From positions 225,177-289,176 of the forward strand of contig JBJMXD010000005.1 in the NCBI GenBank assembly GCA_045809795.1: 64,000 bases of DNA. Reading direction: 5' to 3'. Positions 29,806 through 44,656 of this stretch are shown here, one piece after another. Under the pieces are notes generated by a model that worked only from the letters and a program-made list of their open reading frames with translations, did not search any database and was not told the DNA's origin. Position 1 is the first letter of the stretch. Each line of letters begins with the position of its first letter. The position numbers and the translations under genes are program-made. The DNA comes from Chthoniobacterales bacterium (GTDB lineage Bacteria; Verrucomicrobiota; Verrucomicrobiia; Chthoniobacterales; UBA10450).

Positions 29806-31359
29806 CTAACCCCGCTTGATGATTTGCCGCAGTTGCTCCAGCGCGGCGGCCTCGGCCTTTTCGGGGTCGTCGTAGCCCCAGGCCACGAGCTCCAGCATTT
29901 GGGTGCCAACGTCGCGCTTGCCGCGCTTTACCGCGTCGAGCCGGCCAGCCGGCGTCCAGTTTTCCTTGTCGACCATTCCCGGTGTGGGTGGTGTGCCGTC
30001 CCAATAGCAGTAGAAGACGTGGAGTGGGCGGCCGGCATTTTCGAAAACGTAGGCGCGAATCGGCAAAGGCACGCCGTTCACGTTGAGCAATTTATTTTGG
30101 ACTCCGCCGCGCTGCGTCATGCCACTGGCGGGCAGGCAGATGTCCGGTCGGTGATTTTTGATGAAAAGCCCAGCAGTGCGGCCGGGGAGCCACTTAAAAA
30201 AATACATGCTCCAGTTGTGACCGTCCGCGGACCAGTCGCCGCCGCCGCCTTCGTTGTAACGAAGCAAGGACTGCGCGGCCTCGTCGACCGGCACTTCTTT
30301 CCAATTACCGGCCTGGGTGGGCCAGGCGATGCTCCACGGGGCCAGCTTGGCGGAGCGCGCTTCGTGGACGCCATACCAAATCTGGGTACCGGCCTCCGCG
30401 AACACAGTAAGCGCAAGCAACAAAATCAGAACGAACCGCGGAATTCGAAAACCGGTGCGCGTATGGGATGTGACTGGAACGTTTTGATCTTTGCGGCCGA
30501 GAATGACACTCAAGCCCCACAGGCCCAACATGCAGATCGTCAAAATCGTGTAGCCCGCTGGATCGTGCCAACTCTTGATGGCCTGGAACCCGTGCTCCGC
30601 TCCAAGATAAACGAGGAGAAATGTCCGGACGAGATTGCACAAGAACGCGAGGAGCGCACCCGACAAGATCAGGATTATGCGACGGCGGACGGAAAAACCG
30701 TAGAATTCGCCGAGAAAAAGCGAGACCATGAAGGTGGCCTGCAACGAGCGGATACCCGTGCAGGCTTCGTCAATGCCGACGTACCCGGAACCGACTTCAA
30801 TAACGTTTCCGAGTTGCACAGCCGGAATCCCGATTGCCGTCAGGAACTCGACGTTGATGAGCGCGTCGATCCGCATCAATCCCTGGATCACGATTTGTTC
30901 GAGACCGGTCGGCCACGGAACGGCGACGAGAAAGAACAGGATGGGAAACGCGAAATGACGGAGCCACTTTGCGCCGCCCGCGAGATAAATGCCCGAGACA
31001 GAAATAAGCACCGCGCACAAGGCCATCGCCCAACTGAGTAAACGCCAATCGGGATTCGCTTCTTGAATCATGCGCACCGGCAAAAGGAAGAGCGCCGGCA
31101 GAACGATGAGCGCCATCCAAAAGAAGCTCGCGCGTGGAGCGGCAGGTGCGGGCGCGGTTTGCCACCGCCGCCAGAAAATGTAGGCCACCAGGACCGGCAC
31201 CGCCCAACCGTAACCGTATTGTGGATTGATCGACCATTCGAACCGCAGCCGCGAAACAACTTCGAGCCAGACTAGCGCGAACACCGTGATGGGAAACCAG
31301 GCGACGGCCGTTGAAGCGCTCTCGATTTTTGGCGGAGCCGCAGTGGCGACGGCATTCAT
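29806..31359 (-). CDS. Exosortase (EpsH/Xrt family) fused to a C-terminal EpsI-family domain
   Basis: ATG at 31359 (MNAVATAAPPKIES...). Exosortase core (GIDEACTGIRSL, FLCNLVRTF, HDPAGY), then an EpsI-like periplasmic domain (HRPDICLPASG). The 256 upstream codons of the track ORF were rejected. Confidence 0.85.
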   Translation of the reverse strand: MNAVATAAPPKIESASTAVAWFPITVFALVWLEVVSRLRFEWSINPQYGYGWAVPVLVAYIFWRRWQTAPAPAAPRASFFWMALIVLPALFLLPVRMIQEANPDWRLLSWAMALCAVLISVSGIYLAGGAKWLRHFAFPILFFLVAVPWPTGLEQIVIQGLMRIDALINVEFLTAIGIPAVQLGNVIEVGSGYVGIDEACTGIRSLQATFMVSLFLGEFYGFSVRRRIILILSGALLAFLCNLVRTFLLVYLGAEHGFQAIKSWHDPAGYTILTICMLGLWGLSVILGRKDQNVPVTSHTRTGFRIPRFVLILLLALTVFAEAGTQIWYGVHEARSAKLAPWSIAWPTQAGNWKEVPVDEAAQSLLRYNEGGGGDWSADGHNWSMYFFKWLPGRTAGLFIKNHRPDICLPASGMTQRGGVQNKLLNVNGVPLPIRAYVFENAGRPLHVFYCYWDGTPPTPGMVDKENWTPAGRLDAVKRGKRDVGTQMLELVAWGYDDPEKAEAAALEQLRQIIKRG

Positions 31360-31371
31360 GACGGGCGGGAC

Positions 31372-33213
31372 TTGAGCAGGATACAAGCCGACAAGCCCTG
31401 CCGTCGCGCCGTGGCTCGCGGGTTGCTCCCCTGCACATTTGTCCCTGTCCTGACCGGGCGCTTCGATAAATTGACTTTGGAGCGGGGCATAGAAAGCTTC
31501 ATCAACTTGGAACATCCTCACAATAAAATCGAGCGTTCGATCCTGAAGATCATTCTTTGGACAGTCGGGCTGATTCTGCTCGTCGCCATCGGCGGAGTGG
31601 TTGGCTTTCGCCAGTTTAGAGCATGGCAACAACGGCGACTGGTCGCGGAGGCCTACGGGTTGGTCGCGCAAGGTGATTATCATCGCGCCAGTCTCGATGC
31701 CCGGCGCATCCTCCAGATTAATCCCGATAGCGCGGAGGGTTGCCGAATCATGGCCCGGCTTTCCGAGATCGCTGGCACGCGCGGGGCGTTGGACTGGCGA
31801 CGGCGTGTGATGGAGCTCGGTAACGCTACGCCTGACGATTTGATTCTTTTGGCCCGCGCTGCTGTGAAGTTCGACGATCGCCAGACGGCGGACGTCGCGA
31901 TCGGGAAGCTGCCGGCGAGTGCGAAAGAGACGGCGGATTACCACGCTTTGCTCGCGGACATTGCCTTTGCCCGGCGCGATGGCGTTGAAATGGAACGCCA
32001 GCTCAGCGAAGCGGCGCGCCTCGCCCCGACAAATAAGGATTATGCGATGCGGCTGGCCTCGTTGCGGTTGGGGGCGAACGATCCAAGCATTCGCGCCGAG
32101 GGAAAACAGGCGCTCCTGGAAATGCAAAAGGATCCGGCCTTACGCCGTGACGCGACCCGTTACCTCGTGGAGGATGCGTTGCGGCAAAAGCTGACTCTTA
32201 CCGCGCTCGAACTGGCGCGTCAGCTCGACAGTTTCCCGGACAAGTCCTTTTCCGACCGGCTCCTTCTTCTCACCGCGCTCGATGCCGCGAAAGACAACGG
32301 ATTCGCCGCGTTTTTGGAGGAGATGAAAACGGCCTCAGCTGACGATCCGGAACGCGCGGCGGCGTTACTGACCTGGTTTAACATGCACAGGCGTGAGGCA
32401 GACGCGATCGCGTGGAGCGCGAACCTGCCACCTGGAGTGCTCGGACAAAAAATGGTGCAAATAGCACTGTCCGATTCGTACGTCGCGGCAAAAGACTGGA
32501 CGGGCTTGCAGCGGCTCGTGAACTCGGGCAACTGGGGGACGGTCGATTTTCTCCGGAACGCGCTTGATGCCCGCGCCCTGCGTGAACTTGGGAACCAGCC
32601 GGAATCCGAGGTGCAGTGGAATGAAGCGATCAAAAAAGTGGCCGGCGATTCGCGGCAGGCGCTGACCCTGGCGGAAACGGTTGAGAAATGGGGCTGGCGC
32701 CCGGAAGCGATCGATCTGCTCTGGTTGCTCGCGAAAGATCCGGTGAGAGCGGACGACGCGCTTCGCACTTTATACGGCTACTTCGCCAGGAACGATGACA
32801 CGGAAAACATGTATCGCGTTTTGCTCCACCAGGTGGAATTGCATCCCGACGATTTGAACACGCAGAATAATTTCGCGCAGCTTTCGCTCCTCCTGAACCT
32901 GAATACCGCTCGCGGACAAAAGGCCGCCCGTGACGTTTACGAGAAAAGTCCAAAGAATCCCGCTTACGTTTCGACCTACGCCTTCGCGCTTCACACAGCC
33001 GGCGATTCGAAGAAAGCACTGAAAATTCTGGAGACTTTAACGCCGGAACAACTGCACAAGCCCGAGATCGCGGCCTACTACGGCGTGATTCTGGCCGCGG
33101 GCGGCGATCAGACCCGCGCTGCTGAATTTCTCGATATCGGCGAGAAAGCGACCCTCTTGCCGCAGGAAAAAGACCTCATCGAAAAAGCGCGCCGTTCCCT
33201 GGCGCAACGCTGA
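31372..33213 (+). CDS. TPR-repeat protein with an N-terminal membrane anchor, divergent from the exosortase
   Basis: ~570-613 aa. TM segment ILKIILWTVGLILLVAIGGVV followed by many TPR-like helices. The start is uncertain: no ATG precedes the TM, and TTG candidates lie at 31372 and 31507. Confidence 0.7.
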   Translation: MSRIQADKPCRRAVARGLLPCTFVPVLTGRFDKLTLERGIESFINLEHPHNKIERSILKIILWTVGLILLVAIGGVVGFRQFRAWQQRRLVAEAYGLVAQGDYHRASLDARRILQINPDSAEGCRIMARLSEIAGTRGALDWRRRVMELGNATPDDLILLARAAVKFDDRQTADVAIGKLPASAKETADYHALLADIAFARRDGVEMERQLSEAARLAPTNKDYAMRLASLRLGANDPSIRAEGKQALLEMQKDPALRRDATRYLVEDALRQKLTLTALELARQLDSFPDKSFSDRLLLLTALDAAKDNGFAAFLEEMKTASADDPERAAALLTWFNMHRREADAIAWSANLPPGVLGQKMVQIALSDSYVAAKDWTGLQRLVNSGNWGTVDFLRNALDARALRELGNQPESEVQWNEAIKKVAGDSRQALTLAETVEKWGWRPEAIDLLWLLAKDPVRADDALRTLYGYFARNDDTENMYRVLLHQVELHPDDLNTQNNFAQLSLLLNLNTARGQKAARDVYEKSPKNPAYVSTYAFALHTAGDSKKALKILETLTPEQLHKPEIAAYYGVILAAGGDQTRAAEFLDIGEKATLLPQEKDLIEKARRSLAQR

Positions 33214-33238
33214 ATTCTGGGCCAGATTACGCCCGAAC

Positions 33239-33260
33239 CGGTCCCTCGGACCGATTCTTA
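33239..33260 (+). terminator. Possible intrinsic terminator after the TPR gene
   Basis: CGGTCC-CTC-GGACCG hairpin followed by ATTCTTAATT. Confidence 0.35.
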
Positions 33261-33298
33261 ATTAGACAAGTTTCAACCCGGCTGCGGTCCGGCATGCT

Positions 33299-34168
33299 AT
33301 GAAACCAGGAAAATTCACCCACACCATCGCCGTCCTGCTTTCTTCGATTACGGCGTTCTTTACCCACTCCGCGCCGGCCGCGGTCCCGGCGTCGAAGATC
33401 AAGCTCAGCAAGAAATCGAATTCGTCGAAGAAAGAAGGCCTCCTCAAGGTCGATCCTATTTCTTACACGCCCATGGCGAGCAACGATCCCCCATTGAACA
33501 ACCCCGGCGAAAAGTTTCCGTGGCGAAAAGAAATCGTCACCACCGTTTTTTGGATCGGCGAGAAACCGACCGCGAATAATCCCGTACCGAATCGCTCCAG
33601 TTCATGGGACGCAAACTGGACGAAGAACTACGGCGGGTTCGACGATCCGGAGAAATCGCATCGGCACGATTTCATTCCGGCGAAGTTCACCCCGCGACAA
33701 AATCCGTTCTACTGCGCGCTGCCTTACAACGACAAAGCGCGCGACGGCCACCGGCCCGAAGCGCCGCGCGTCGTGCCGTGGTTCAACGAAGCGTATCAAG
33801 GCCCCGGCGTTTCCACCTGCAAAGGCCGCTGGATCGCGATCCGCAAAGGAAACAAGGTCGCCTACGCGCAATGGGAAGATGCCGGTCCATTTCGGACCGA
33901 TCACTGGCAATACGTTTTCGGCAACGAACGTCCGAAACCGAACCTGAACAAAGGCGCCGGGCTCGACGTTTCACCAGCCGTCCGCGATTACCTGGGCATT
34001 GACGAGACCGACGTAACCGATTGGAAATTCGTCGACTTCAGCGAAGTACCTCACGGCCCCTGGTCCAAGCTCGGTGATAACAACACGTTTGTGATCAACG
34101 CCCGTAAAGGCATCGCGACGGTGGCCTCCGCGAATCCTACCCCCGGCGGCGTGACGGTTCGGCCCTAG
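33299..34168 (+). CDS. Hypothetical secreted protein (possibly the first, degenerate cassette)
   Basis: 289 aa. Signal peptide (IAVLLSSITAFFTHSAPA), then a conserved-looking Trp/Pro-rich core. The TAG stop lies in a degenerate R''-like CCCTAGC. Confidence 0.65.
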   Translation: MKPGKFTHTIAVLLSSITAFFTHSAPAAVPASKIKLSKKSNSSKKEGLLKVDPISYTPMASNDPPLNNPGEKFPWRKEIVTTVFWIGEKPTANNPVPNRSSSWDANWTKNYGGFDDPEKSHRHDFIPAKFTPRQNPFYCALPYNDKARDGHRPEAPRVVPWFNEAYQGPGVSTCKGRWIAIRKGNKVAYAQWEDAGPFRTDHWQYVFGNERPKPNLNKGAGLDVSPAVRDYLGIDETDVTDWKFVDFSEVPHGPWSKLGDNNTFVINARKGIATVASANPTPGGVTVRP

Positions 34169-34263
34169 CAACGACATGACGCCCCGTTCCCTCCCGACTT
34201 CGCCGTGATAGGCGAAAAAATGTTCGCCTTTAAATACGAACCTTCGTCTAATTCTCGTTAGAC
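34163..34263 (+). repeat. attC0, a decayed attC-like site (R''-like CCCTAGC ... R' GTTAGAC)
   Basis: The 3' end CGTCTAATTCTCGTTAGAC matches the attC7 3' end. The 5' half is only loosely similar, and the L-box pairing is lost. Confidence 0.5.
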
Positions 34264-34264
34264 G

Positions 34265-34561
34265 TTGAGAGCCGTGCACTATCACGATGGAACACCAGTG
34301 AAGCTCGGCGATCGGGTGCGTGCGGCCATTCCGGGCGGCACAGCCCCGGCACGCATCGTCATGCTCGGAGACACCTATGAGCATCTGGAGATCGATCCAC
34401 AGTTCCTGAGCTGGGTGAAGCGTGACAGAGTGCTGGAGCCAGCGCATGTTGTGCTCGAGTGGATCGAGGAAAACCCCTTTGCACATGACGATCCGAAATA
34501 TGCTCCAGTCGGAAACTTCATGTTTTCACCGCTCGATTCTGCAGTCACGCGTGACGTCTAA
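34265..34561 (+). CDS. Cassette 1 ORF, hypothetical
   Basis: 98 aa. TTG at 34265 (alternative GTG at 34274) lies 2 nt after the R' core. The stop TAA is the TAA of the attC1 R'' box. No family recognised. Confidence 0.5.
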   Translation: MRAVHYHDGTPVKLGDRVRAAIPGGTAPARIVMLGDTYEHLEIDPQFLSWVKRDRVLEPAHVVLEWIEENPFAHDDPKYAPVGNFMFSPLDSAVTRDV

Positions 34562-34678
34562 CCATGCGATGGAGCGAACGCCGGACCGCTTCGCGTCCAC
34601 ATTTGAGATGACTTCGACACTTCCACTCCGAGCGATGCGCGGTCTCGCCAGCCGTCGCTCATCTTGTTCTCGTTAGAT
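34556..34678 (+). repeat. attC1 (123 bp, loop class I)
   Basis: GTCTAAC...GGAGCGAACG...TTTGAGATGACTTCGACACTTCCACTCCGAGCGA...CGTCGCTCATCTTGTTCTCGTTAGAT. Confidence 0.85.
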
Positions 34679-34725
34679 GACGCGACGTGCCTTCTGGAAT
34701 CACCAAGAAATAGCTCGCGACCCAC

Positions 34726-35124
34726 ATGAGCTCCGATTTTGACCCGCGCCCGGACGAGCCTGCCGGCCACGTCGCGGACTCCTTTGTTCGGATGTTCTTC
34801 GGTGACGACGAGACTCGAGCGGAAGCCCTATCCTGGCTCAAAGCGGGTGGTGACAAGCACACTTTGGGAGAGCTAGCCTCCACTTCCGTATCAGTTCGCT
34901 TAGTCAACGCCGTTTATCGCGCCGGTGCGACGAAGGTTTGGGCCGTCGAGATCGACAGGTATCCCGATGGCAGGGAAAATACTGGCAAGATTGTTATCGA
35001 GTTGCCGGACGAGCCCCGGCTACGCAGTCAAGTCTTGGCGTGGGCGAGTCGGAAATCTAGAGCCAAAGGTTTTGGTGAAATCTACGACGAAAAGCAACAT
35101 TATGTTTTCCTCATGCTGGACTGA
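34726..35124 (+). CDS. Cassette 2 ORF, hypothetical cytoplasmic
   Basis: 132 aa with an ATG start. Stops 3 nt before attC2. Confidence 0.6.
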   Translation: MSSDFDPRPDEPAGHVADSFVRMFFGDDETRAEALSWLKAGGDKHTLGELASTSVSVRLVNAVYRAGATKVWAVEIDRYPDGRENTGKIVIELPDEPRLRSQVLAWASRKSRAKGFGEIYDEKQHYVFLMLD

Positions 35125-35127
35125 GTC

Positions 35128-35250
35128 ATCTAACCAAGCGATGGAGCGAACGGCGACCCGCTTTCGGTCCGCGCGCTCGCCAGCTAGAGTGTCTTTCGTG
35201 AAGGCACAGCGCGCTCTCGGTCGCCGTCGCTCATCTTGTTCTCGTTAGAT
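35128..35250 (+). repeat. attC2 (123 bp, unique loop)
   Basis: ATCTAAC ... GAGCGAACGGCGACC / GGTCGCCGTCGCTC ... GTTAGAT. Confidence 0.85.
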
Positions 35251-35521
35251 GGTGAATGCCGTTCCCAAAGCAGCGAACAAAAGACCAGCGTGGCAGCGCC
35301 GCGCTGTGAGTCAGCTTCAGTGGCGGCATCTTTATGCATGGCTTTTGAGTCTTGGTGTGGCACTTGTCATCGGATACGCCCTTCAGCAATGTGGATTGGC
35401 TTCGGTTCCTTGGGCGCTTTTATTCGTTCTTCCTTTTGTCCTTGCCTCCAGTTTCATGATCCCGCTCGCATATCGTCGCGGCTTGGAGGACGGGAGAGCG
35501 CACCCGTCTGACTCGGAGTGA
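35249..35521 (+). CDS. Cassette 3 ORF, small membrane protein (2 TM)
   Basis: 90 aa. The ATG overlaps the R' core (GTTAGATG). Hydrophobic helices LYAWLLSLGVALVIGYAL and WALLFVLPFVLASSFMI. Confidence 0.55.
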   Translation: MVNAVPKAANKRPAWQRRAVSQLQWRHLYAWLLSLGVALVIGYALQQCGLASVPWALLFVLPFVLASSFMIPLAYRRGLEDGRAHPSDSE

Positions 35522-35542
35522 GCTGATGCAGCAGCGCCGACC

Positions 35543-35665
35543 ATCTAACCATGCGATGGAGCGAACGGCGGACCGCCGCATGACAAGTATGAAGGAAAAA
35601 TTAAGAATTAAGAAGTATCCGGAGCGCGCTCCCGTCCGCCGTCGCTCATCTTGTTCTCGTTAGAT
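35543..35665 (+). repeat. attC3 (123 bp, loop class III)
   Basis: ATCTAAC ... GAGCGAACGGCGGAC ... ATGACAAGTATGAAGGAAAAATTAAGAATTAAGAAGTAT ... GTCCGCCGTCGCTC ... GTTAGAT. Confidence 0.85.
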
Positions 35666-36206
35666 GTTTCGACTGCACGTAACACGAACGATTTGGTTCG
35701 CAGCACTCGCGTGTGGGCTTGCCGCGATGGGTGAGGACACGCCAGTAACCAGCGCTCAGCAGCCCGCGCTCGAGAAGCTCGCAGGATCGGTCGGGGTTTG
35801 GGAGAGCACCACGCGGTATCGATTCGCGCCGGATATGCCTGTCTTTGAGAGCCACAGTGTCGAGACGACGCAGTGGTCCCCGAACCACAAGTTTCTGATT
35901 TCGGACCAGCGAGGAACAATGCCTGACGGGACGATAAACCGGGTCGTTGTCATTACTTGGGATCCGAAGGAGAAGTTGTACAAGCTGGTGGCGATCTATG
36001 CCGGAGGAGAAACCGAGCAACTGGCAATGACTGTCGAGGGCAGCGTGCGAACCATCGTCTCCTATCGTCACATCGGTGAGCGCATGATTCGCTGTGAGAA
36101 TAAGATGGAAGACACATCACCTACGGAATTTAAGGCCCGCTGCGAATGCACGGATCGGGAAACGAATTGGACCTTCTCGGAGGCAAGCTCAAAGAAAGTG
36201 CAGTGA
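35664..36206 (+). CDS. Cassette 4 ORF, secreted protein (DUF1579-like, tentative)
   Basis: 180 aa. The ATG overlaps the R' core. Signal peptide TIWFAALACGLAAMG. Confidence 0.65.
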   Translation: MFRLHVTRTIWFAALACGLAAMGEDTPVTSAQQPALEKLAGSVGVWESTTRYRFAPDMPVFESHSVETTQWSPNHKFLISDQRGTMPDGTINRVVVITWDPKEKLYKLVAIYAGGETEQLAMTVEGSVRTIVSYRHIGERMIRCENKMEDTSPTEFKARCECTDRETNWTFSEASSKKVQ

Positions 36207-36212
36207 GCCAAC

Positions 36213-36335
36213 ATCTAACCAAACGATGGAGCGAACGGCTGGCAGCCATGGAAAGTAAGATTTAAGAATTATGAAGCATGAAACCGCAGCGACGCGCCGT
36301 CCCGCCAGCCGTCGCTCATGTTGTTCTCGTTAGGC
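36213..36335 (+). repeat. attC4 (123 bp, loop class II)
   Basis: ATCTAAC ... GAGCGAACGGCTGGC ... GGAAAGTAAGATTTAAGAATTATGAAG ... GCCAGCCGTCGCTC ... GTTAGGC. Confidence 0.85.
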
Positions 36336-36353
36336 GACTAGCACGCGTCACCC

Positions 36354-36704
36354 ATGGATCCATTTCCAGAACCGCATGAACTGCTCTCATTCTTCTCGCA
36401 GGAGCCGGAGCTCGCGCACGCCGACACGCCGCCCTTTTACAATACCCTCAGATTCAGCGGGCGCGTCGGTGAGATCGCTTACGTCGTCAGGATTTCTCCG
36501 TCAGATCGCGAGCTACGGCTGCAGACGCAGTCCGACCAGATGAATGTCGATCTTGCCGTCACAGATGTCGCTGGCCTTACGGTTCACGAGGGGCCGACGG
36601 AGTCCCTTATGATGGCGACGTTTTCGCCTGACAGTCGACGCGGGCTTCTTAAGTTTCGTCTGCATCCACGCCTTGAGGTCGAATGGCCGTTCGAGAAGCA
36701 TTGA
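36354..36704 (+). CDS. Cassette 5 ORF, hypothetical
   Basis: 116 aa with an ATG start. No signal peptide. Confidence 0.55.
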   Translation: MDPFPEPHELLSFFSQEPELAHADTPPFYNTLRFSGRVGEIAYVVRISPSDRELRLQTQSDQMNVDLAVTDVAGLTVHEGPTESLMMATFSPDSRRGLLKFRLHPRLEVEWPFEKH

Positions 36705-36714
36705 CGACCGGTCG

Positions 36715-36837
36715 CCTAACCATGCGATGGAGCGAACGGCGGACCGCTGTGCGCTCCACTTTTGAGATGACTTCCACACTTCCACTCCGAGCGACGCGCG
36801 CTCTGGTCCGCCGTCGCTCATCTTGTTCTCGTTAGGC
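36715..36837 (+). repeat. attC5 (123 bp, loop class I)
   Basis: GCCTAAC ... GAGCGAACGGCGGACC ... TTTGAGATGACTTCCACACTTCCACTCCGAGCGA ... GGTCCGCCGTCGCTC ... GTTAGGC. Confidence 0.85.
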
Positions 36838-36839
36838 GT

Positions 36840-38072
36840 ATGAAACCACGCCCTCGATATTATTATGCCGCACTGCTCGGTGTCTTGTGTGCCGCTGGTT
36901 CGGGCCCCCTTCGGGCCGATCACGTGGATGACGTCGTAGCGGCGCAGATAAGACAACACCACATTCCGGGACTCGCGCTGGCAATCATCGAAGGAGGTGC
37001 GGTCGCCAGAGAACAAGGTTATGGATACGCGGACACAAGCCAGAGGACGGCAGTGACGCCTTCAACGCTTTTTCAGGCCGGCTCCGTCAGCAAAGCCGTC
37101 TCCGCATTGGGCGCGCTGCATCTCGTTGATCAGGGCAAAGCGTCACTAGACGAGGATATCAACTCGAAGCTGCGGACATGGCAAATACCGCAGAACGGGT
37201 TCACAAAAGAACATGCCGTGACGCTGCGGCTGATTCTCAGCCATAGTGCGGGTCTGACAGTGCATGGGTTTTCAGGCTATCCGGTGGACGCACCGCTCCC
37301 GTCCCTCGTGCAGATTCTCAACGGGCAAAGGCCGGCTAATTCAGCCGCGGTTCGCGTTGAAGAAGTTCCGGGGAGCCATTGGAATTACTCGGGAGGAGGC
37401 TATCTCGTCATTCAGCAAATGATAATGGATCTTACAGGAAAGCCGTTTGGGCAGTATATGCATGAGACGGTTCTGCAGCCTCTCGGGATGGTTTCCAGCT
37501 CGTATGCACAGCCGTTGCCAGCCGCAATGGCCGACCACGCGGCGACGGGTTACGCCGGTCTGTTTCGCCGTGCCATCAAAGGCCGCTGGCGTGTTCATCC
37601 GGAGTTGGCGGCCGCGGGTCTGTGGACGACGCCTGGCGATCTGGCTCGCTTCTTGATAGGTATCCAGCGCTCACGCGCTGGCACCTCCAATCCGATCATC
37701 TCGCGGTCCACCACGCGTCAAATGCTGACGAACCAAAAAAATGATGATGGTCTCGGCGTATTTATCGGAGGCGAGCCGCTCAAGTTCGGCCACGACGGAA
37801 GCAACGTGGGGTTCGATACCATGACCATCGCTTTTGCCGATAGAGGGCAAGGCGCAGTTATCATGATGAACACCAATGTGGACATCAAAGCTCTGAAAGA
37901 GATTCTGTTGGATGCTATCGGCGAGCAGTATCGCTGGCCGGGTTATCCAGTTGGATCGCGCCGAACGCCTAACCATGCGATGCAGCCAACCCCTGGCCGG
38001 CGTACGACCCAGTTTTCCATGACTTTAACCTCTCATCCCGCAGCCACGCGCGCCCACGCCAGCGGTGGCTGA
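36840..38072 (+). CDS. Cassette 6 ORF, secreted beta-lactamase-fold serine hydrolase (class C / family VIII esterase / PBP-like)
   Basis: 410 aa. Signal peptide YYYAALLGVLCAAGSGPLRA. Has SxxK (FQAGSVSKAV), YSGGGY and HDGSNVGF motifs. The last ~35 codons run through attC6. Confidence 0.85.
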   Translation: MKPRPRYYYAALLGVLCAAGSGPLRADHVDDVVAAQIRQHHIPGLALAIIEGGAVAREQGYGYADTSQRTAVTPSTLFQAGSVSKAVSALGALHLVDQGKASLDEDINSKLRTWQIPQNGFTKEHAVTLRLILSHSAGLTVHGFSGYPVDAPLPSLVQILNGQRPANSAAVRVEEVPGSHWNYSGGGYLVIQQMIMDLTGKPFGQYMHETVLQPLGMVSSSYAQPLPAAMADHAATGYAGLFRRAIKGRWRVHPELAAAGLWTTPGDLARFLIGIQRSRAGTSNPIISRSTTRQMLTNQKNDDGLGVFIGGEPLKFGHDGSNVGFDTMTIAFADRGQGAVIMMNTNVDIKALKEILLDAIGEQYRWPGYPVGSRRTPNHAMQPTPGRRTTQFSMTLTSHPAATRAHASGG

Positions 38073-38089
38073 TCTTGTTCTCGTTAGGT
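37967..38089 (+). repeat. attC6 (123 bp, divergent, class IV-related loop)
   Basis: GCCTAAC ... CAGCCAACCCCTGGC / GCCAGCGGTGGCTG ... GTTAGGT. Fully contained in the 3' end of the preceding ORF. Confidence 0.8.
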
Positions 38090-38107
38090 GACTAGAACGT
38101 CCTCCCT

Positions 38108-38461
38108 GTGGCCAATCCCGACAAACGCACTTCGTATCTCAAAAAGCTCGTCAGTGCCGCGCGCGCCGTCATCACCTATCAGGTCGGTTTGCCATTCGGC
38201 TGCGCGCGCATTGGCGGGCTCCTCTCTGCGCTGCGCCCGTTCGAGCCGCTCGATTATCCTGTATTCGACGAGTACCGTAATGCCATCGTCAATCTGCCGG
38301 TGGGGACGGAGCGGCTTCATTGGGCCCGTGAGAGTCTCCGCGAGAAGGACATTCGGCTCGAAGCCATCACTGGTGAGTTTCGCGATCGCATTTTCGAGGC
38401 CTGTTATGACATCATTGATCGCCATGCCGAGCCTGTTGACAAGCAACGCGACGTCACCTAA
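38108..38461 (+). CDS. Cassette 7 ORF, hypothetical
   Basis: 117 aa with a GTG start. The stop TAA is the TAA of the attC7 R'' box. Confidence 0.5.
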   Translation: MANPDKRTSYLKKLVSAARAVITYQVGLPFGCARIGGLLSALRPFEPLDYPVFDEYRNAIVNLPVGTERLHWARESLREKDIRLEAITGEFRDRIFEACYDIIDRHAEPVDKQRDVT

Positions 38462-38578
38462 CCAAGCGATGGAGCGAACGGCCGGCAGTCCTGGAAAGTA
38501 AGATTTAAGAATTATGAAGGATGAAACCAAAGCCACGCGCTCTCCGGCCAGCCGTCGCTCATCTAATTCTCGTTAGAT
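38456..38578 (+). repeat. attC7 (123 bp, loop class II)
   Basis: ACCTAAC ... GGAAAGTAAGATTTAAGAATTATGAAGG ... CCAGCCGTCGCTCATCTAATTCTCGTTAGAT. Confidence 0.85.
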
Positions 38579-38972
38579 GGCTCCGCGCTCCTTTTGGCGG
38601 TCTCGCTTGATCCTCCTTTGCGCATTTCTGCTGGTTGCCGGATGCGTATCACTGACAAGTGTCGTTCTCGCACCCAATCCCCACCCGCGTGAGGCATTAA
38701 CCCTCGATTTGCGCCTGGCGTACGTGCACATTCACCGTCAAACCATAATGGACACGCTTCTCGCGATCGACAGCGCCATCAAACGACAGTCCGGCCGGAG
38801 GCATGGCCTCGCCTTCTCCGTGGAATACGGAGGGGGCAAAAATGTTTCCATTGATGCTCACGACATGACTGTGAGGAGCTTGCTCCTCCAGATCTGTCGC
38901 CAGTCTGACCTCATTTGCGAGATGGACGATCCGAATTCGCCTTACGACGTTTCCATCACCTCCCGAAACTAG
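38577..38972 (+). CDS. Cassette 8 ORF, lipoprotein
   Basis: 131 aa. The ATG overlaps the R' core. Lipobox LLVAGC. Confidence 0.65.
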   Translation: MAPRSFWRSRLILLCAFLLVAGCVSLTSVVLAPNPHPREALTLDLRLAYVHIHRQTIMDTLLAIDSAIKRQSGRRHGLAFSVEYGGGKNVSIDAHDMTVRSLLLQICRQSDLICEMDDPNSPYDVSITSRN

Positions 38973-38981
38973 AGTGAAAAC

Positions 38982-39104
38982 ATCTAACCATGCGATGGAG
39001 CGAACGGCGGACCGTCCGTATGCAAGGCGGAATTAAAAATTAAGAATTATGAAACAAGCAACGCGCGCTCTCGTCCGCCGTTGCTCATCTTGTTCTCGTT
39101 AGGC
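38982..39104 (+). repeat. attC8 (123 bp, class III variant)
   Basis: ATCTAAC ... GAGCGAACGGCGGAC ... AATTAAAAATTAAGAATTATGAAAC ... GTCCGCCGTTGCTC ... GTTAGGC. Confidence 0.85.
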
Positions 39105-39112
39105 CTCTCCAA

Positions 39113-39802
39113 ATGCGCTGGTTACAAATCTTCGCCATTCCAGCTGTTGTGGTAACCGCTTTTGCGGCAGACCAAGCTATCACAGTCGGCGGCGACCGAG
39201 CGAAGGAACTGTCCCGGGAAGACATCAGCAATATCGTATTGCTTTGCAAACAGACGCGACCTTCGGAACGTCTGTGGGCGGTTGTTACCGATAAGAGCCC
39301 TGCCGCACCAAACCAGATGTTACGCGCCACAGTCTATTTCTATCCGACTTTGATTCAGTCTCGGCTCAGGACGGGTTCGGCAGCTTCGGTGACCGCGGGA
39401 GTATCTGCCGACAAATTCGTCAGCATACAATCTCGGCAAGGACGCTGGATTAGCAGCGGAGCGCAATTAGCCAAGTATGCACAAGTTGCCATCGATGATA
39501 GCCAGTTCCTGAATGCACCTGGAGACATTCGCGACCCCCAAGAAGGCCCATTTTTTGTCGCCAACGAGATTTTAGACGCGGACATTGTTTCGATCGTCGA
39601 TTCCTTGCGCGCTTTCTTACGGGCCGATCCCAGTTCCGCCGGACCGGCGCGCAGGACTCATCCAATCACCATCATGATGGGTTCCAAGAGTCATGCTGAG
39701 GTCTGGTCGAGTGGGGGCGATAAGCATTTTGACACCTACGTGCTCGACAAGCACGGCGAGAAGTGGAGCATTTCTAAGACTGGACAGTTCGACGCACAAT
39801 GA
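39113..39802 (+). CDS. Cassette 9 ORF, secreted protein
   Basis: 229 aa. Signal peptide MRWLQIFAIPAVVVTAFAA. Confidence 0.65.
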   Translation: MRWLQIFAIPAVVVTAFAADQAITVGGDRAKELSREDISNIVLLCKQTRPSERLWAVVTDKSPAAPNQMLRATVYFYPTLIQSRLRTGSAASVTAGVSADKFVSIQSRQGRWISSGAQLAKYAQVAIDDSQFLNAPGDIRDPQEGPFFVANEILDADIVSIVDSLRAFLRADPSSAGPARRTHPITIMMGSKSHAEVWSSGGDKHFDTYVLDKHGEKWSISKTGQFDAQ

Positions 39803-39818
39803 CAAGTCGCCCCACGAC

Positions 39819-39941
39819 GCCTAACCAAGCGATGGAGCGAACGGCGGACCGCCGGATGACAAGTATGAAGGAAGAATTAAGAATTAAGAAGTATTCGGAG
39901 CGCGCTCTCGTCCGCCGTCGCTCATCTTGTTCTCGTTAGGC
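39819..39941 (+). repeat. attC9 (123 bp, loop class III)
   Basis: GCCTAAC ... ATGACAAGTATGAAGGAAGAATTAAGAATTAAGAAGTAT ... GTTAGGC. Nearly identical to attC3. Confidence 0.85.
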
Positions 39942-39943
39942 CC

Positions 39944-40318
39944 ATGCAGCGCGTCTTGATGCCATTGGTCACCTTCATCGGTGCGATTATCGCATCTACG
40001 GTGATGGCGGCGTCGGATATCCCATTAATCTGCGAGGAGAACCTTGCCACCGAACACAAGCGGTGCGGCATCTCTGACGCGCAGGCTCGTGAGGCCATGC
40101 GCTTCGTCAGGAGGATTCCCGGTGTGAGTCATCAGATCATCACGATCGATGCGCTCGATCTACCGCAGGTTGTCGTCACCACAGGCGAGCCATTCGAGCG
40201 GGGCCACACCGTCTTTTTGCGACGGATGGGTCGGCGTTGGACAGTGGAGAAGACGGTCCCGTGGACCAAGAAAGATTGGATCATCTTAGGCGCGAACAGG
40301 CCTAACCAAACGCTGTAG
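39944..40318 (+). CDS. Cassette 10 ORF, secreted protein
   Basis: 124 aa. Signal peptide LMPLVTFIGAIIASTVMAA. The reading frame passes through the attC10 R'' box. Confidence 0.6.
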   Translation: MQRVLMPLVTFIGAIIASTVMAASDIPLICEENLATEHKRCGISDAQAREAMRFVRRIPGVSHQIITIDALDLPQVVVTTGEPFERGHTVFLRRMGRRWTVEKTVPWTKKDWIILGANRPNQTL

Positions 40319-40423
40319 CGAACGCCTACCCGTCGTTCGCCCAACATTTCCTATGACTAAACCATTTCACCTCCGATCGACGCTCGCCTCTGGTAGGCGT
40401 CACTGATCTCTTTCTGGTTAGAC
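40300..40423 (+). repeat. attC10 (124 bp, loop class IV)
   Basis: GCCTAAC ... GTAGCGAACGCCTACC ... CATGACTAAACCATTTCAC ... GGTAGGCGTCACTG ... GTTAGAC. Confidence 0.8.
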
Positions 40424-40425
40424 CT

Positions 40426-41028
40426 ATGAGCACGCCATTCCAAGTCGTCGCGCTGGTCGGACTAGCGGCCTGGCTGTGCCCGAAGGCCTACGCGCCGATC
40501 TACGGTGGCTATCCAGGTTTGCATTCGCTCATCAAACAGTCAGAAATTGTCGCCGCCGTCACGATACTCGAGCGGTTGTCGGACGACGATTTCGGTGATT
40601 CCGCGCGATACAAGATACAGTTCGACAAGCTGCTGAAGGGATCCGCGTCAGAGAAGCAAGTCGTCGCTTACCTCCGCTACCTCGAAATCATTCCAGAGGA
40701 GGAGATGCGACGCACCCCTCGGCCGGGGCCGCAGCCATCAACCCATTACTTTGCTCTAACGGACCGGCTTGAGCCGTTCCGTAGGCAAGCGCGGTTCGTT
40801 GTCTTCTTAACGAAAGCGAGGAAAGAGGTCGAGACGGCATACGAAAACGTTAACTGCATGGGATCGACATTTCCTTTGTCCCCGCTAAGAGATCTTGACG
40901 CGCTCAAGATGGATTCATTGCCGGATACCCTGATTCTCCTTTTCCGAGAGTATGTTGACTTCAGGCGCACAGAGCTGAAGGAAGTTGAGGCGCAGCTAAG
41001 TGAATTTGTTCATCATCGCGACGAATAG
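40426..41028 (+). CDS. Cassette 11 ORF, secreted protein
   Basis: 200 aa. Signal-like N-terminus FQVVALVGLAAWLCPKAYA. The TAG stop abuts attC11. Confidence 0.65.
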   Translation: MSTPFQVVALVGLAAWLCPKAYAPIYGGYPGLHSLIKQSEIVAAVTILERLSDDDFGDSARYKIQFDKLLKGSASEKQVVAYLRYLEIIPEEEMRRTPRPGPQPSTHYFALTDRLEPFRRQARFVVFLTKARKEVETAYENVNCMGSTFPLSPLRDLDALKMDSLPDTLILLFREYVDFRRTELKEVEAQLSEFVHHRDE

Positions 41029-41151
41029 GTCTAACCAAGCGATGGAGCGAACGGCTGGCAGCAGTGGAAAGTAAGATTTAAGAAGTATGAAGGAAAAAAC
41101 CGCAGCCACGCGCTGTTCCCCCAGCCGTCGCTCATCTTGTTCTCGTTAGAC
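41029..41151 (+). repeat. attC11 (123 bp, loop class II)
   Basis: GTCTAAC ... GAGCGAACGGCTGG ... GGAAAGTAAGATTTAAGAAGTATGAAGG ... CCAGCCGTCGCTC ... GTTAGAC. Confidence 0.85.
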
Positions 41152-41154
41152 CCA

Positions 41155-41682
41155 GTGAAAACGTTCGCCCTCTTGCTCTGCGTTGTTGGAATCGCGGCTG
41201 GCGAAACCCGGTCGATTAGCGATCTGACCCCGAGCGGCATAGTGGGTAATTGGGAGTCCCTGGCAGCGCGGGCGGACGGGGTACCGGTCCCCATCGTGCT
41301 CCAAATGTCTTTTACCGCTCCGGACGCCGCACACCTCGTGGTCAGTAACTCCACGGATCCGGAGTCTACTCCTCGGTTTCTTGGGAAGCTGACGAGTTCC
41401 AGCCTAATCAAAGGGAAGATCCATCTTAGATTTTCTGCAGTGCCTCCATATCCGATTCCTGCCGAGGGAGTGGATTATGGATATGATCGAGTAGAGATCG
41501 ACGGGCGCGCGACCGATGCCGGTGAGCTCTCCTCGGTGGAAGGAACGCTTGTGATGCACGGTACAAAGGAGAAGGAAGTGACGTATCGCGTTTTTTTCCT
41601 TAAGTCGCTTTGGGTGCATGAGCTTGCTCAATATTCGAGAGCCGCTCAGGAAATCATAAAGAATGTGCAAGCTCACCATTAG
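41155..41682 (+). CDS. Cassette 12 ORF, secreted protein
   Basis: GTG at 41155 gives (M)KTFALLLCVVGIAAG. The track start at 41137 is a TTG inside attC11 and was rejected. Confidence 0.6.
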   Translation: MKTFALLLCVVGIAAGETRSISDLTPSGIVGNWESLAARADGVPVPIVLQMSFTAPDAAHLVVSNSTDPESTPRFLGKLTSSSLIKGKIHLRFSAVPPYPIPAEGVDYGYDRVEIDGRATDAGELSSVEGTLVMHGTKEKEVTYRVFFLKSLWVHELAQYSRAAQEIIKNVQAHH

Positions 41683-41804
41683 TCTAACCACGCGATGCAG
41701 CGAACGCCTACCCGTCGTTCGCCTGACATTTCCCATGACTAAATCATTCCACTTCCGACCAACGCTCGCCTCGGTAGGCGTCGCTGATCTCTTTCTCGTT
41801 AGAT
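41682..41804 (+). repeat. attC12 (123 bp, loop class IV)
   Basis: GTCTAAC ... CAGCGAACGCCTACC ... CATGACTAAATCATTCCAC ... GGTAGGCGTCGCTG ... GTTAGAT. Confidence 0.85.
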
Positions 41805-42312
41805 GGTAACCGCCAAGACTATTACCACGCTGCTCGCCATAGCACCGATCGTCGTCCTCGTGGTGGCTTGGGCACGGCGCTTCATATCCAACACCGATGG
41901 TGGGCTCGTTTCGGTCGATGACGTTCCGCAGCTGCTATCGGCGCTTACTGGCACCGGCAAGGATGGCTCGTTTTGGGTCGTGCTTGTCCCGAACACGGCG
42001 CGAGAGGATGGCAATTTCGCGAATCTACAATTCTCGATCGAAGGTGACCGCGTCGGGATGGATTGGGTGTTGCTCGCCAAGCGCAATATTGAAGACCAAG
42101 GCGCTTTTACCCAGTTTGTCGCTGCCGCTGGGGCGACTGTGCAAGACATAACGATGAATGGCGTCCGGTATCTCCGAGTAAGTGACGGTCCCGATCTGGC
42201 AAAGCTCGGTCAGGACTTTCTTCAGCAGGTTTATCACGTGGCGCCAGAAGACAAGCTACAGCTGATCATCACGGATTTCGCATGGACACCGAAGACGGCT
42301 GCGAAAAATTAA
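41803..42312 (+). CDS. Cassette 13 ORF, N-terminally anchored protein
   Basis: 169 aa. The ATG overlaps the R' core. TM segment TTLLAIAPIVVLVVAWA. The 3' end runs into the truncated attC13. Confidence 0.6.
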   Translation: MVTAKTITTLLAIAPIVVLVVAWARRFISNTDGGLVSVDDVPQLLSALTGTGKDGSFWVVLVPNTAREDGNFANLQFSIEGDRVGMDWVLLAKRNIEDQGAFTQFVAAAGATVQDITMNGVRYLRVSDGPDLAKLGQDFLQQVYHVAPEDKLQLIITDFAWTPKTAAKN

Positions 42313-42366
42313 GAAGTGCTCAACGTCCGCTCAGGCCAGCCGTTGCTCGCCCTGTTCTCATTAGAC
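42306..42366 (+). repeat. attC13, a 5'-truncated attC remnant (class III-like 3' half, R' degenerated to ATTAGAC)
   Basis: AAATTAAGAAGTGCT...CCAGCCGTTGCTCGCCCTGTTCTCATTAGAC. No R''/L'' half is present. Confidence 0.6.
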
Positions 42367-42379
42367 CAACGCAGGCGAA

Positions 42380-42697
42380 ATGAATGGATTATTGCTCGTC
42401 GTTACTTCTATTTCGGGCATGTTGGCATTCGCGTTTTTCCTTCTCGCGTTCATGTCGCTCACGGCGATCGACGCAGCAGAGAGGGCCGAGATAAATGAGG
42501 CCGCGCGACGGTTCTTTCCAGGAGACGGCTTCTTTGCGCAGTTAAATCGGCGTGGGTACATCCAAAGCGAAGCAGGGTCGGCGTCCCGGATGGGCGATCA
42601 TTGGCGGGCACGCCCACAAATTCGCACGTTCCTTTCACTGGGCGCCGGCTTTCTCCTTATCGCTGTGATTTGCGGGCATTTCGCCACGCTGCCATAA
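42380..42697 (+). CDS. Cassette 14 ORF, small membrane protein (2 TM)
   Basis: 105 aa; LLLVVTSISGMLAFAFFLLAFM and FLSLGAGFLLIAVICG. Confidence 0.55.
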   Translation: MNGLLLVVTSISGMLAFAFFLLAFMSLTAIDAAERAEINEAARRFFPGDGFFAQLNRRGYIQSEAGSASRMGDHWRARPQIRTFLSLGAGFLLIAVICGHFATLP

Positions 42698-42710
42698 AGT
42701 CGTATTAAAG

Positions 42711-42831
42711 GTCTAACCAGGTGATGCAGCGAACCGTGCTTGATTTTGGTTCACGTTTCAGAGCAGCAAAAGCTTTAGCTCGCCGCCAACACGCTCTCGC
42801 GGACGGAAGTTGGTCTTGTGTCTCATGAGGA
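42711..42831 (+). repeat. attC14, an attC with intact R'' (GTCTAAC) but a degenerate 3' end (…GTCTTGTGTCTCATGAGGA)
   Basis: The 5' GTCTAACCAGGTGATGCAGCGAAC matches the family. The 3' end resembles ATCTTGTTCTCGTTAG with substitutions. Confidence 0.55.
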
Positions 42832-43085
42832 GCCGACGTGTCGTGAAAACTCTCAGCGTGATTGTCGGGGGAATTCTTGTCGCGGTCGGTGTTGTCGGCA
42901 GCGCAGCGGGCGTCTTCGCGTTAATTGATCCAAAAGGTTCAAAGGCGGCAGATGATGGAGATCCATTCGGCCCGCCGTCGGGCGTTCTGGAGTCTTCGGT
43001 CATGCTGGGTGTCTACGTCGCAATTACCGCGGTTGGGGTTTACCTGTTGTGGAGGTCACGCCGGAGGCAGCGCATATCCACCTAA
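42825..43085 (+). CDS. Cassette 15 ORF, small membrane protein (2 TM)
   Basis: 86 aa from ATG at 42825, which occupies the position of the degenerate R'. The stop TAA is the TAA of the terminal R'' stub. Confidence 0.5.
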   Translation: MRSRRVVKTLSVIVGGILVAVGVVGSAAGVFALIDPKGSKAADDGDPFGPPSGVLESSVMLGVYVAITAVGVYLLWRSRRRQRIST

Positions 43086-43100
43086 CGAGGCGATCAGAAG
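43080..43100 (+). repeat. attC15, a terminal attC stub (ACCTAACGAGGCGAT...)
   Basis: Only R'' plus ~8 nt are retained. Similarity ends where the convergent kinase stop codon (43094-43096) begins. Confidence 0.5.
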
Positions 43101-44656
43101 AGTTCCGGATGATCGTCGGCGACGGGTTCGGGGGTGATGATGGAGCGGATTTTGGCGAGGAGATCGTTGAAGTCGTAGGGCTTTTGGATCGTGTCGATGA
43201 CCCCGGCTTTCAACATTTCGGAACGAATCGCGGGTTCTAGATACCCGCTAGCGACGATGGCGCGGACGCCGGGGCGGCTCTCTTTCATTTTCAGAAAGGC
43301 TTCGCGGCCACCGAGGCGGGGCAGACCGAGATCGCAAACGACGAGGCCAATCTCGGCACTATGGGTTTCGAAAAGAGAGACGGCTTCGATGCCGTCCTTC
43401 GCGGGAAGAACGCGGAAGCCTTCGCTCTCCAGGATGGAAACGCCGAGTTCGCGGAGCATGTCTTCGTCTTCCACCAGCAGGATGGTTTGCGGAATGTCCT
43501 GGCGCGGCGCGCCGGTCCGATCGGGGCCCAGTTGCTCGGCGGCGACGTGTTTGACCGGTAAATAAATGATGAAGCTGGTGCCGGTGCCGGGCTCGCTCTC
43601 GACCTGGACGAAACCGCGGTGGTTGTTGACCACGCCGTAAACGACGGAGAGCCCGAGGCCGGTGCCTTTGCCGCGCTCTTTCGTGCTGAAGAACGGCTCG
43701 AAAATGTGCGACTTTACCTCACGCGTCATGCCGATGCCGGAGTCGCGCACCCGAATGCAGGCGTAATTGTCCGCGGTCACGCCGGAAAAAATTTCCATGA
43801 GATCGGAGCCGGGAGTGATGCCGGTGCTGAGAGTCAGCGTGCCGCCCTCGGGCATCGCGTCCCGGGCGTTCACGCAAAGATTCAGCAGGACTTGGTGAAG
43901 CTGGCTCTTATCGGCGGTGACGAGCGAAAGTTCGGAGGCGAGGTCGAGATTGAAGCTGATCGTCTTCGGAAATGTTGCCTGGAGCATCGGTTCGAGATCG
44001 CGCACCAGCGCGTTCAGATCGACCGACGAAAAACGCGCTTCAGTCTGGCGCGCTGAGGTCAGCAATTGCTGAACGAGGGCCGCGCCGCGATCGACGGCTT
44101 CCTTGATGACTTTGATCGCGCCGGGAAATTCGTTTGGCTTCGCGTGCGAGCTTTCGAGTTTGTTGGTGTACCCGAGAATGATCGCAAGGATGTTGTTGAA
44201 ATCGTGCGCGATGCCGGCGGCCAGCGTGCCCAGGCCTTCCATCTTCTGCGCCTGGACGAGTTGCTCCTCGAGCCTCTTCCGTTTTGTATCGTTGAAGAGG
44301 TAAACGTGGAGATCGACCAATTCGCCGGCCGTGAAATTTCCAACCAACCGGCCGACGACATACACGGGGTTGCCGTTGCGCTGCGTCATTTCCAATTCGT
44401 GGCGGTCGACGATTCCGTGCTGCCGCACCATCTCCAGCAATTCGACTCCGTCCTGCCGGCTCCGAAGCAACGAAAGAACGTTCGCGGACCGCGCTTCTTC
44501 CGCCGATTCAAATCCAAACATGGTTAAGGCGGCCGGATTGCACCCGATAATCTGGCCATCCGTCCGCATCACGAGGATGCCGGTGAAGTTGTCAGCGACG
44601 AAACGCAGGGCGCGTTTCTCCATTTCGTCTGGTGCGTCGGAAGAATGGTTCGTCAC
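43094..44656 (-). CDS. Hybrid sensor histidine kinase/response regulator (PAS - HisKA - HATPase - REC)
   Basis: 520 aa. H-box GIAHDFNNILAIILGY, G-boxes DSGIGM and GTGLGLS, and a C-terminal receiver (ILLVEDEDMLRE...VVCDLGLP). The GTG start overlaps the upstream stop (GTGA). Confidence 0.85.
   Translation of the reverse strand: MTNHSSDAPDEMEKRALRFVADNFTGILVMRTDGQIIGCNPAALTMFGFESAEEARSANVLSLLRSRQDGVELLEMVRQHGIVDRHELEMTQRNGNPVYVVGRLVGNFTAGELVDLHVYLFNDTKRKRLEEQLVQAQKMEGLGTLAAGIAHDFNNILAIILGYTNKLESSHAKPNEFPGAIKVIKEAVDRGAALVQQLLTSARQTEARFSSVDLNALVRDLEPMLQATFPKTISFNLDLASELSLVTADKSQLHQVLLNLCVNARDAMPEGGTLTLSTGITPGSDLMEIFSGVTADNYACIRVRDSGIGMTREVKSHIFEPFFSTKERGKGTGLGLSVVYGVVNNHRGFVQVESEPGTGTSFIIYLPVKHVAAEQLGPDRTGAPRQDIPQTILLVEDEDMLRELGVSILESEGFRVLPAKDGIEAVSLFETHSAEIGLVVCDLGLPRLGGREAFLKMKESRPGVRAIVASGYLEPAIRSEMLKAGVIDTIQKPYDFNDLLAKIRSIITPEPVADDHPELF

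Follow-up and report, generated by a model that had tools for sequence, protein, structure and literature searches.

A putative intact attI site heads a cassette array without its own integrase gene in a Chthoniobacterales genome

Introduction

How does an integron cassette array come to lie in a chromosome with no integrase gene beside it, and could such an array still be in use? The question is raised by a 64,000-nucleotide stretch of the genome of a Chthoniobacterales bacterium (Verrucomicrobiota; GenBank assembly GCA_045809795.1, contig JBJMXD010000005.1, positions 225,177 to 289,176), hereafter the window, in which about 15 cassettes occupy the interval between two convergent core genes (34264-43100, + strand; coordinates are those of the window unless a contig is named). 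An earlier note on this DNA, made from its sequence, placed the insertion site at the left end of the array from the cassette orientation, found neither an integrase gene (intI) nor an attI there, and read the boundary as a decayed attC and the neighbouring 289-aa gene as a possible old cassette. In the reading that we favour, to which we give a probability of roughly 85%, the boundary is an intact attI (34203-34263) heading an array that has no intI of its own; the locus would have lost its intI and kept the attI, on which a distant IntI would act in trans.

Clusters of attC sites that have no integron integrase (CALINs) are defined by attC sites without an accompanying integrase (Cury et al. 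2016, PMC4889954; IntegronFinder 2.0, PMC9024848). The definition ignores attI, which is searched for only in classes 1-3, and such sites, 'poorly described' once class 1 is set aside, have hardly been characterised beyond a few clinical integron classes. Pseudogenes of intI were found near only 5% of CALINs, and their origin was left open in the cited surveys (PMC4889954; PMC9024848); integrase loss, rearrangement and insertion at attG sites are all debated (bioRxiv 10.1101/2022.09.11.507474 for attG). A limited literature search returned no paper on orphan, secondary or multiple attI sites, or on attI-headed arrays without intI, as a class.

Results and discussion

The left boundary of the array

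The genome under study (G000; 3.7 Mb in eight contigs, the window being C5:225177-289176) was compared with relatives, designated G0xx, and with fetched contigs and loci, designated L0xx, L1xx and L2xx. A single match to TIGR02249 above the curated cut-off was found in the assembly, at C5:72689-73627 on the + strand (458 bits against a cut-off of 265). The encoded IntI is full length (model positions 1-313 of 315), stop-free and carries domains PF00589 and PF13495, and its closest relatives in named records are from Chthoniobacterales, Candidatus Udaeobacter and Verrucomicrobiae metagenome-assembled genomes. The gene is followed on the same strand by the 32 attC matches of the main integron (C5:74113-89504), and the window array begins 186 kb downstream of it on the same contig and strand. 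This intI is thus transcribed toward its own cassettes, and the insertion site lies just 3' of the gene. Searched by blastn against the whole genome, the main-integron spacer from the intI stop codon to the first cassette (...GAAATAGGCGAAAAATGTTCGCCTTTAATTACGAACATTCGTCTAATTCTCGTTAGAT) returned the corresponding window sequence (...CGTGATAGGCGAAAAAATGTTCGCCTTTAAATACGAACCTTCGTCTAATTCTCGTTAGAC) and little else (47 nt, 95.7%, E 2e-15), and the reverse search with the window site as query returned the main attI (63 nt, 92%, E 1e-16). The 47-63 nt leading up to GTTAG thus contradict the view that no attI is present, and the absence of an IntI-type gene adjoining the array is confirmed.

The window site (34203-34263, + strand) is 92-96% identical to C5:73675-73736, which is located after the stop codon of intI and before the first cassette of the main integron. 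From left to right it has an extension CCGTG, then a direct repeat (DR)-like box ATAGGCGAA (34208-34216), the inner inverted pair TTCGCC / ACGAAC and an L box TTCGTCTAA (34243-34251), which the spacer TTCTC separates from the R box GTTAGAC (34257-34263); we infer a crossover between G34257 and T34258. At one mismatch or fewer, a 19-nt core TTCGTCTAATTCTCGTTAG is confined in G000 to two positions, one heading the main array and one heading that of the window, and never occurs within an array. A two-mismatch variant of this core is present in a third, weaker attI copy at C6:786906-786942, at the head of a small array without intI.

Two integron-integrase types are present in the genus, both using the same attC family. 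Type A integrases are 72-77% identical to the IntI of G000 and are transcribed toward the cassettes, with attI 3' of intI; those of type B are ~60% identical to it, have the classical divergent orientation and are accompanied by their own attI variants. An architecture of the same ~60 nt (DR-like box (A/T)TAGRCGAA, inner inverted pair, L box TTCGTCTAA, spacer TTCTC, R box GTTAGRY) stands 3' of 13 co-oriented type-A intI genes of relatives within the genus, a mixture of intact and broken copies, and the box sequences covary with integrase type (TAGACGAA/TTCGTCTA; TAGGCCGAA/TTCGGCCTA in classically oriented type-B integrons; TAGATGTAA/TTACATCTA in G004). The TTAGAC at the window junction complements the R'' box GTCTAAC of cassette 1 (34556), which argues that the junction behaves as a true attI x attC product; the main integron likewise pairs TTAGAT with ATCTAAC. 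Given its position and conservation with a cognate intI, a GTTRRRY core whose TTRRRY belongs to the first cassette, and inverted L and R boxes with further boxes upstream, 34203-34263 is best described as a predicted attI of type A in intact form.

The likeness of the boundary to an attC holds for its 3' 20 nt, which resemble attC 3' ends (repeat family D8), and does not extend to a decayed attC. A covariance model built from the 12 array attCs recognised only an 18-nt mini-palindrome at 34246-34263 (8.2 bits, E 0.71, against 101-126 bits for real attCs), a whole-genome nhmmer attC search gave nothing at the boundary with E<=10, and the 101-nt segment 34163-34263 formed local hairpins only, with no end-to-end attC-like fold. 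The L box TTCGTCTAA is of the attI type, found beside intI genes, the attC type being CTCATCTTG. What had been taken for an eroded 5' half, CCCTAGCAACGACATGACG, is where the 289-aa gene ends, its final codons and stop codon, and relatives keep this stretch as coding sequence whether or not they have an array.

History of the locus in related genomes

Alignment of the junction with relatives, as the earlier note had proposed, revealed three states of the locus. The site between the 289-aa gene (p289) and the histidine kinase gene at the right flank is empty in G014, G009, G013, G007, G017 and G008, where an interval of 25-160 bp, free of attC, separates the two genes. G018 (C24) and G044 (C166) have the order p289-intI-attI-array, with intI exactly between p289 and attI. 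An attI and array without intI are present at the locus in G000, G012, G002, G003, G011 and G034. G011 retains residues 1-47 of a type-B IntI (E 3.5e-17 at 78.7% identity) in divergent orientation to a type-B attI, and this stub is a deletion scar at this very locus. The presence of intI (G018, G044) or of a truncated intI (G011) at the same locus points to local loss of intI rather than rearrangement. The alternative that the array had been separated from its integrase by rearrangement is accordingly not the best reading, as an array with its own attI is a separate platform.

G000 aligns to its sister genome G012 in a single blastn block (31178-34261, 86.9%) that runs through the spacer and the attI and ends at the crossover; homology resumes at 43103. 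The 34-nt spacer between the p289 stop codon and the attI (34169-34202, + strand) is homologous to that of G012 in this unbroken alignment and is too short for an intI remnant. Since an independent assembly has the same p289-attI junction, the junction is not an assembly artefact, and the intI-less state predates the split of the two genomes. All cassettes, the first included, differ between them, and the attI core of G012 is mutated to GCTAG. A second sister pair, G044 with intI and G003 without, aligns in p289 (88%), in a 62-nt attI (92%) and in a downstream attC match (94%) and nowhere else at the locus; the p289-to-attI spacers of the two are not homologous.

The orphan attI is more conserved than adjacent coding DNA, both against G018 (92.6% versus 82.1%) and between G044 and G003 (91.9% versus 88.1%), and the neighbouring non-coding DNA could not be aligned in these comparisons; such conservation would fit selection on the site. 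In the p289 protein tree 10 of the 17 inner branches are unresolved and the only supported pairs are G000 with G012 and G003 with G044, so that independent losses of intI at the locus are not countable. Right boundaries of the array vary among relatives and are thus uninformative on the original insertion.

The flanking gene and the upstream motif

The gene p289 (33299-34168, + strand) encodes a secreted-looking protein of no Pfam family and forms the core left flank of the insertion site. Orthologues 76-96% identical are present in 17 of the 18 genus genomes searched, and, elsewhere in the order, 11 of 12 genomes belonging to other families have relatives at 52-70% identity. The backbone order exosortase-(TPR)-p289, followed by convergent histidine kinase-CAAX protease-NadE genes, is kept in relatives. 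Because of this conserved synteny, and because p289 abuts the kinase gene directly in six relatives, we identify it as a core chromosomal gene, which disposes of its suggested origin as a cassette; it is present in genomes with no array at the locus, and the covariance model finds an attC on neither side of it. A p289 paralogue, 63% identical, is encoded at C2:76545-77246 of the same genome.

The letters on which the earlier note relied are as it described them, namely GTTAGAC at 34257-34263, ATTCTTAATTAGAC at 33254-33267, the 289-aa open reading frame (ORF) and the exosortase/TPR locus to its left. The motif ATTCTTAATTAGAC, which had been called R'-like and a sign of a further cassette, is part of the T-rich tail ATTCTTAATT of a terminator-like hairpin CGGTCCCTCGGACCG (33239-33253), the whole (33239-33267, + strand) being no part of the integron. 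The sequence CCGATTCYTAAnTAGAc was found upstream of p289 in all 11 relatives aligned, empty-site genomes included, and the attC covariance model gave no match at 33254.

Cassettes and attC sites of the array

Cassette 1 (34264-34678, + strand) consists of an ORF (34265-34561; 98 aa, no Pfam family) and an attC of 116 bits (34556-34678). It is the first of a series in which twelve intact attC sites of 123-124 nt alternate with cassettes (34556-41804, + strand), each site scoring 101-126 bits. All twelve repeats start with RYCTAAC and finish with GTTAGRY. Their fold is canonical, with a 7-bp R''/R' stem, an unpaired spacer of 5 against 8 nt, an L''/L' stem and bulged bases, and compensatory changes were seen in 10 of the 27 base pairs across the twelve sites. 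Beyond them lie the 3' half of a thirteenth attC with its core mutated to ATTAGAC (42304-42366, + strand; repeat family D2; nhmmer model positions 61-122, C5:267480-267541) and a decayed distal attC with intact R''/L'' and a degenerate 3' core (42711-42831, + strand; covariance model 19.8 bits, E 3e-4, and nhmmer). The variable region ends on the right in an attC-like stub ACCTAACGAGGCGAT (43080-43094, + strand), which abuts the stop codon of the convergent hybrid histidine kinase/response regulator gene (43094-44656, - strand; PAS, HisKA, HATPase_c, Response_reg), the core right flank.

With 12 intact and two partial attCs and the nearest intI 186 kb away, the array is a CALIN in the sense of IntegronFinder, that is, at least two attCs with no integron integrase gene nearby, as the earlier note had suggested. 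No intI adjoins the attI and array as it would in a complete integron: p289 stops 34 nt before the attI and the right flank is the kinase gene. Pfam matches were obtained for only two cassette proteins, a DUF1579 protein and a PF00144 beta-lactamase-fold protein. The latter, a 410-aa serine hydrolase (E 1.4e-53), is encoded by the largest cassette (36840-38072, + strand). A sigma-70 consensus scan of 33100-34700 gave no promoter, a result that is uninformative for this phylum.

Orphan attI sites in the genus and in soil metagenomes

The 19-nt type-A core, with up to one mismatch, was found 151 times in 37 of 40 genus genomes, compared with no occurrence of the reversed control. Contig coordinates place 14 of the 151 matches next to an intI match, leaving ~90% of attI cores with no adjacent intI. 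In a sample of 40 sites drawn from eight genomes, the sequence preceding the site is a frameshifted intI in one case, a short C-terminal remnant of intI in two and an unrelated gene in 37; 29 of the 40 are succeeded by attCs in matching orientation, and a full attC was seen upstream of none. When metagenomes were scanned with an attI pattern of 42 nt, 38 soil contigs were identified, two with intI upstream of the attI and 36 without it, several of which carry 2-5.7 kb of housekeeping genes there instead. Upstream of the intI-less attI, metagenome contigs L139, L162 and L154 have flanks that are 98-100% identical, and their first cassettes are unrelated.

Further attC clusters without intI were found in G000 on contigs C6, C8 and C3 when the whole assembly was searched, as had been recommended in the earlier note. 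AttI-like heads were seen at three of these intI-less arrays: C6:786942, whose site (C6:786906-786942) is a type-A copy nearly identical to the attI of G044, and C6:189653 (-) and C8:19834 (-), whose forms are a type-B-like short form and one with a CACGTG-like repeat run upstream, the latter also present in G034 and G016. The clusters at C6:1432355-1433304 and C8:278570-278684 sit at flanks that border intI in relatives (G014, G031 and G041; G002) and look like further platforms that have lost intI. A type-B attI was sought at the CALIN at C6:1432-1433 kb by comparison with intI-bearing relatives at that locus, with no convincing match. Mapped onto G000, the intI genes found in relatives fall at 12 or more distinct loci.

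The non-coding DNA that precedes several intI genes (L044, L046, L056, L057) repeatedly carries a repetitive extragenic palindrome (REP)-like sequence CCTCGTTCCCAAGTTGCACTTGGGAACG and an element GGCACGCCGTAGCC...GGCGG, and both are also present in the intI-deleted p289 locus of G011 (L024). The 9-mer TCTCGTTAG occurs ~75 times outside attC in G000 against roughly 21-28 expected, usually followed by GC and mostly far from attCs; the excess could stem from a bias in codons or peptides, or be what is left of secondary insertion sites.

Proposed mechanism and the evidence against it

The locus was probably once a complete integron that lost its intI and retained its attI. From established integron biology, every cognate attI of a cell should be open to the action of a diffusible IntI. 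The C5 IntI would bind the DR, L and R boxes of the double-stranded window attI and pair it with the folded bottom strand of the attC of circular cassettes, one strand would be exchanged at G|TT, and replication would resolve the product. Cassettes would in this way be inserted and removed at the window site in trans, and may be transcribed by read-through from the co-oriented p289. The window attI is plausibly still served by the C5 IntI, as the near-identical metagenome flanks with different first cassettes suggest.

Several observations weigh against this account. The attI is assigned from position and conservation. The window holds no intI fragment (no significant one in 33000-35000), and the loss of intI in this lineage is deduced from relatives. 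Species differ in the attI variant that they carry at the locus, and this leaves room for separate insertions, or for the replacement of alleles, instead of a single ancestral integron. No cassettes common to the window array and the other arrays of G000 were found by blastn, similarity being confined to attC against attC, and there is thus no direct trace of recent exchange within the genome. The distal attCs are decayed. G031, G032 and G034 carry several attI sites and no detectable cognate type-A intI and, as the core of G012 is also mutated, orphan attI sites can persist as relics.

Alternative explanations

The rival that survives best, which we nevertheless consider unlikely, takes the window site to be an inert relic: a true attI left behind after the loss of intI and no longer used, heading an array that is frozen and decaying. 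The decay of the distal sites (19.8 bits at 42711-42831; the stub at 43080), the lack of shared cassettes, the GCTAG core of G012 and the relatives with many orphan sites and no detectable type-A integrase are all as this explanation would have them. It sits poorly with an R box GTTAGAC and other boxes that are intact, with 12 proximal attCs that score like those of the main array, with an intact cognate IntI in the same genome and with an orphan attI better conserved than the coding DNA beside it. It also leaves unaccounted for the complete difference between the cassettes of G000 and G012 behind a common intI-less junction, and the different first cassettes behind 98-100% identical metagenome flanks.

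A second possibility, which appears improbable, is that attI and cassettes spread together as a circle without intI and reinserted at new loci, so that the window never held an integrase gene. Most orphan sites indeed lack an intI remnant (37 of the 40 sampled; 36 of the 38 metagenome contigs), the left edge at which homology among the copies begins is always the same to within a few nt, and the G003 and G044 spacers share no homology. Set against this are the intI genes at this very locus in G018 and G044, the intI remnants that adjoin some orphan sites (G011, L198, L213) and conserved bases that reach left of the DR-box GTT. Moreover, a recombination site was sought upstream of type-A intI genes and at the left edge of attI, and only REP-like palindromes were found.

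A third rival has cassettes inserted by an integrase directly into a chance intergenic GTT, with no attI ever present. Experiments have demonstrated cassette insertion outside att sites, and it has been put forward as one origin of small CALINs (bioRxiv 10.1101/2022.09.11.507474). Such an attG-type origin is very hard to sustain here: it would leave no integron sequence to the left of the crossover, where 55-60 nt match the attI family (E 1e-16), and relatives carry intI at this locus. Least credible of all is that 34163-34263 is an old attC with an eroded 5' half and p289 its cassette, for although the last ~20 nt are like an attC 3' end and the p289 stop codon lies within a weakly R''-like CCCTAGCAAC, the 8.2-bit match spans 18 nt with neither an nhmmer match nor an end-to-end fold, the supposed 5' half is coding sequence kept in relatives with empty sites, the L box is of attI type and p289 is a core gene with kept synteny.

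Comparison with known systems

The window array shares features with several described systems. As in other CALINs, at least two attCs have no intI for several kb around them, and the genome contains a complete integron and other such clusters besides; here, the array has retained a complete attI to which the IntI of the genome is cognate, and at the locus in relatives the intI is present or truncated. The attI1 site of class 1 integrons has DR1, DR2, L and R boxes (PMC9892861), and the window attI resembles it in its R box GTTRRRY with a predicted crossover at G|TT, in an L box that lies inverted a few nt upstream of these, and in additional boxes farther upstream that take the R orientation, but has no sequence similarity to it beyond the core, its IntI-binding boxes being predictions from sequence. 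The cassettes and small arrays found away from any integrase, ascribed to attG secondary-site insertion and including single attC sites lacking integron integrases (SALINs; Loot et al., bioRxiv 10.1101/2022.09.11.507474), differ in that the mechanism needs and leaves no attI, whereas the window array is headed by one of 60 nt.

The closest natural analogue is found in the Xanthomonas chromosomal integrons at ilvD, in which intI is inactivated (Gillings et al. 2005, cited by bioRxiv 10.1101/2025.06.18.660453). Going by that secondary account, they share with the present system a sedentary integron at a conserved locus across a genus, frequent loss or inactivation of intI, and CALINs at conserved positions. 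There, as cited, intI loss is read as array freezing, whereas here arrays behind an intI-less attI differ completely between close relatives; this genus, moreover, has integrons at a dozen or more loci and in two intI orientations.

The layout of the main integron, with intI, attI and cassettes on one strand and attI between the intI 3' end and the first cassette, is also that of 'inverted' integrons. In these, intI is reportedly transcribed toward the cassettes, as is said of Treponema denticola. The present case differs in phylum, being from Verrucomicrobiota, and in that the same genus also has the classically oriented type B with the same attC family.

Implications

One locus has been seen in three states, namely empty, as a complete integron, and as an attI with array and no intI, and the attI that G000 has there finds its cognate IntI, intact, at another place in the genome. 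This bears on the debated origin and status of integrase-less arrays. Should such sites be used in trans, the copies of attI and not those of intI would determine how many capture platforms are active, cassettes at several loci could sit near an expression signal simultaneously, and integron censuses keyed to intI would understate the active platforms. More tentatively, and with a chance that we put a little below even, the integron of this genus may be a distributed system in which one IntI, or one supplied transiently, serves many scattered attI platforms in trans. Were that so, most CALINs in the genus, the window array among them, would be working satellite platforms and not debris.

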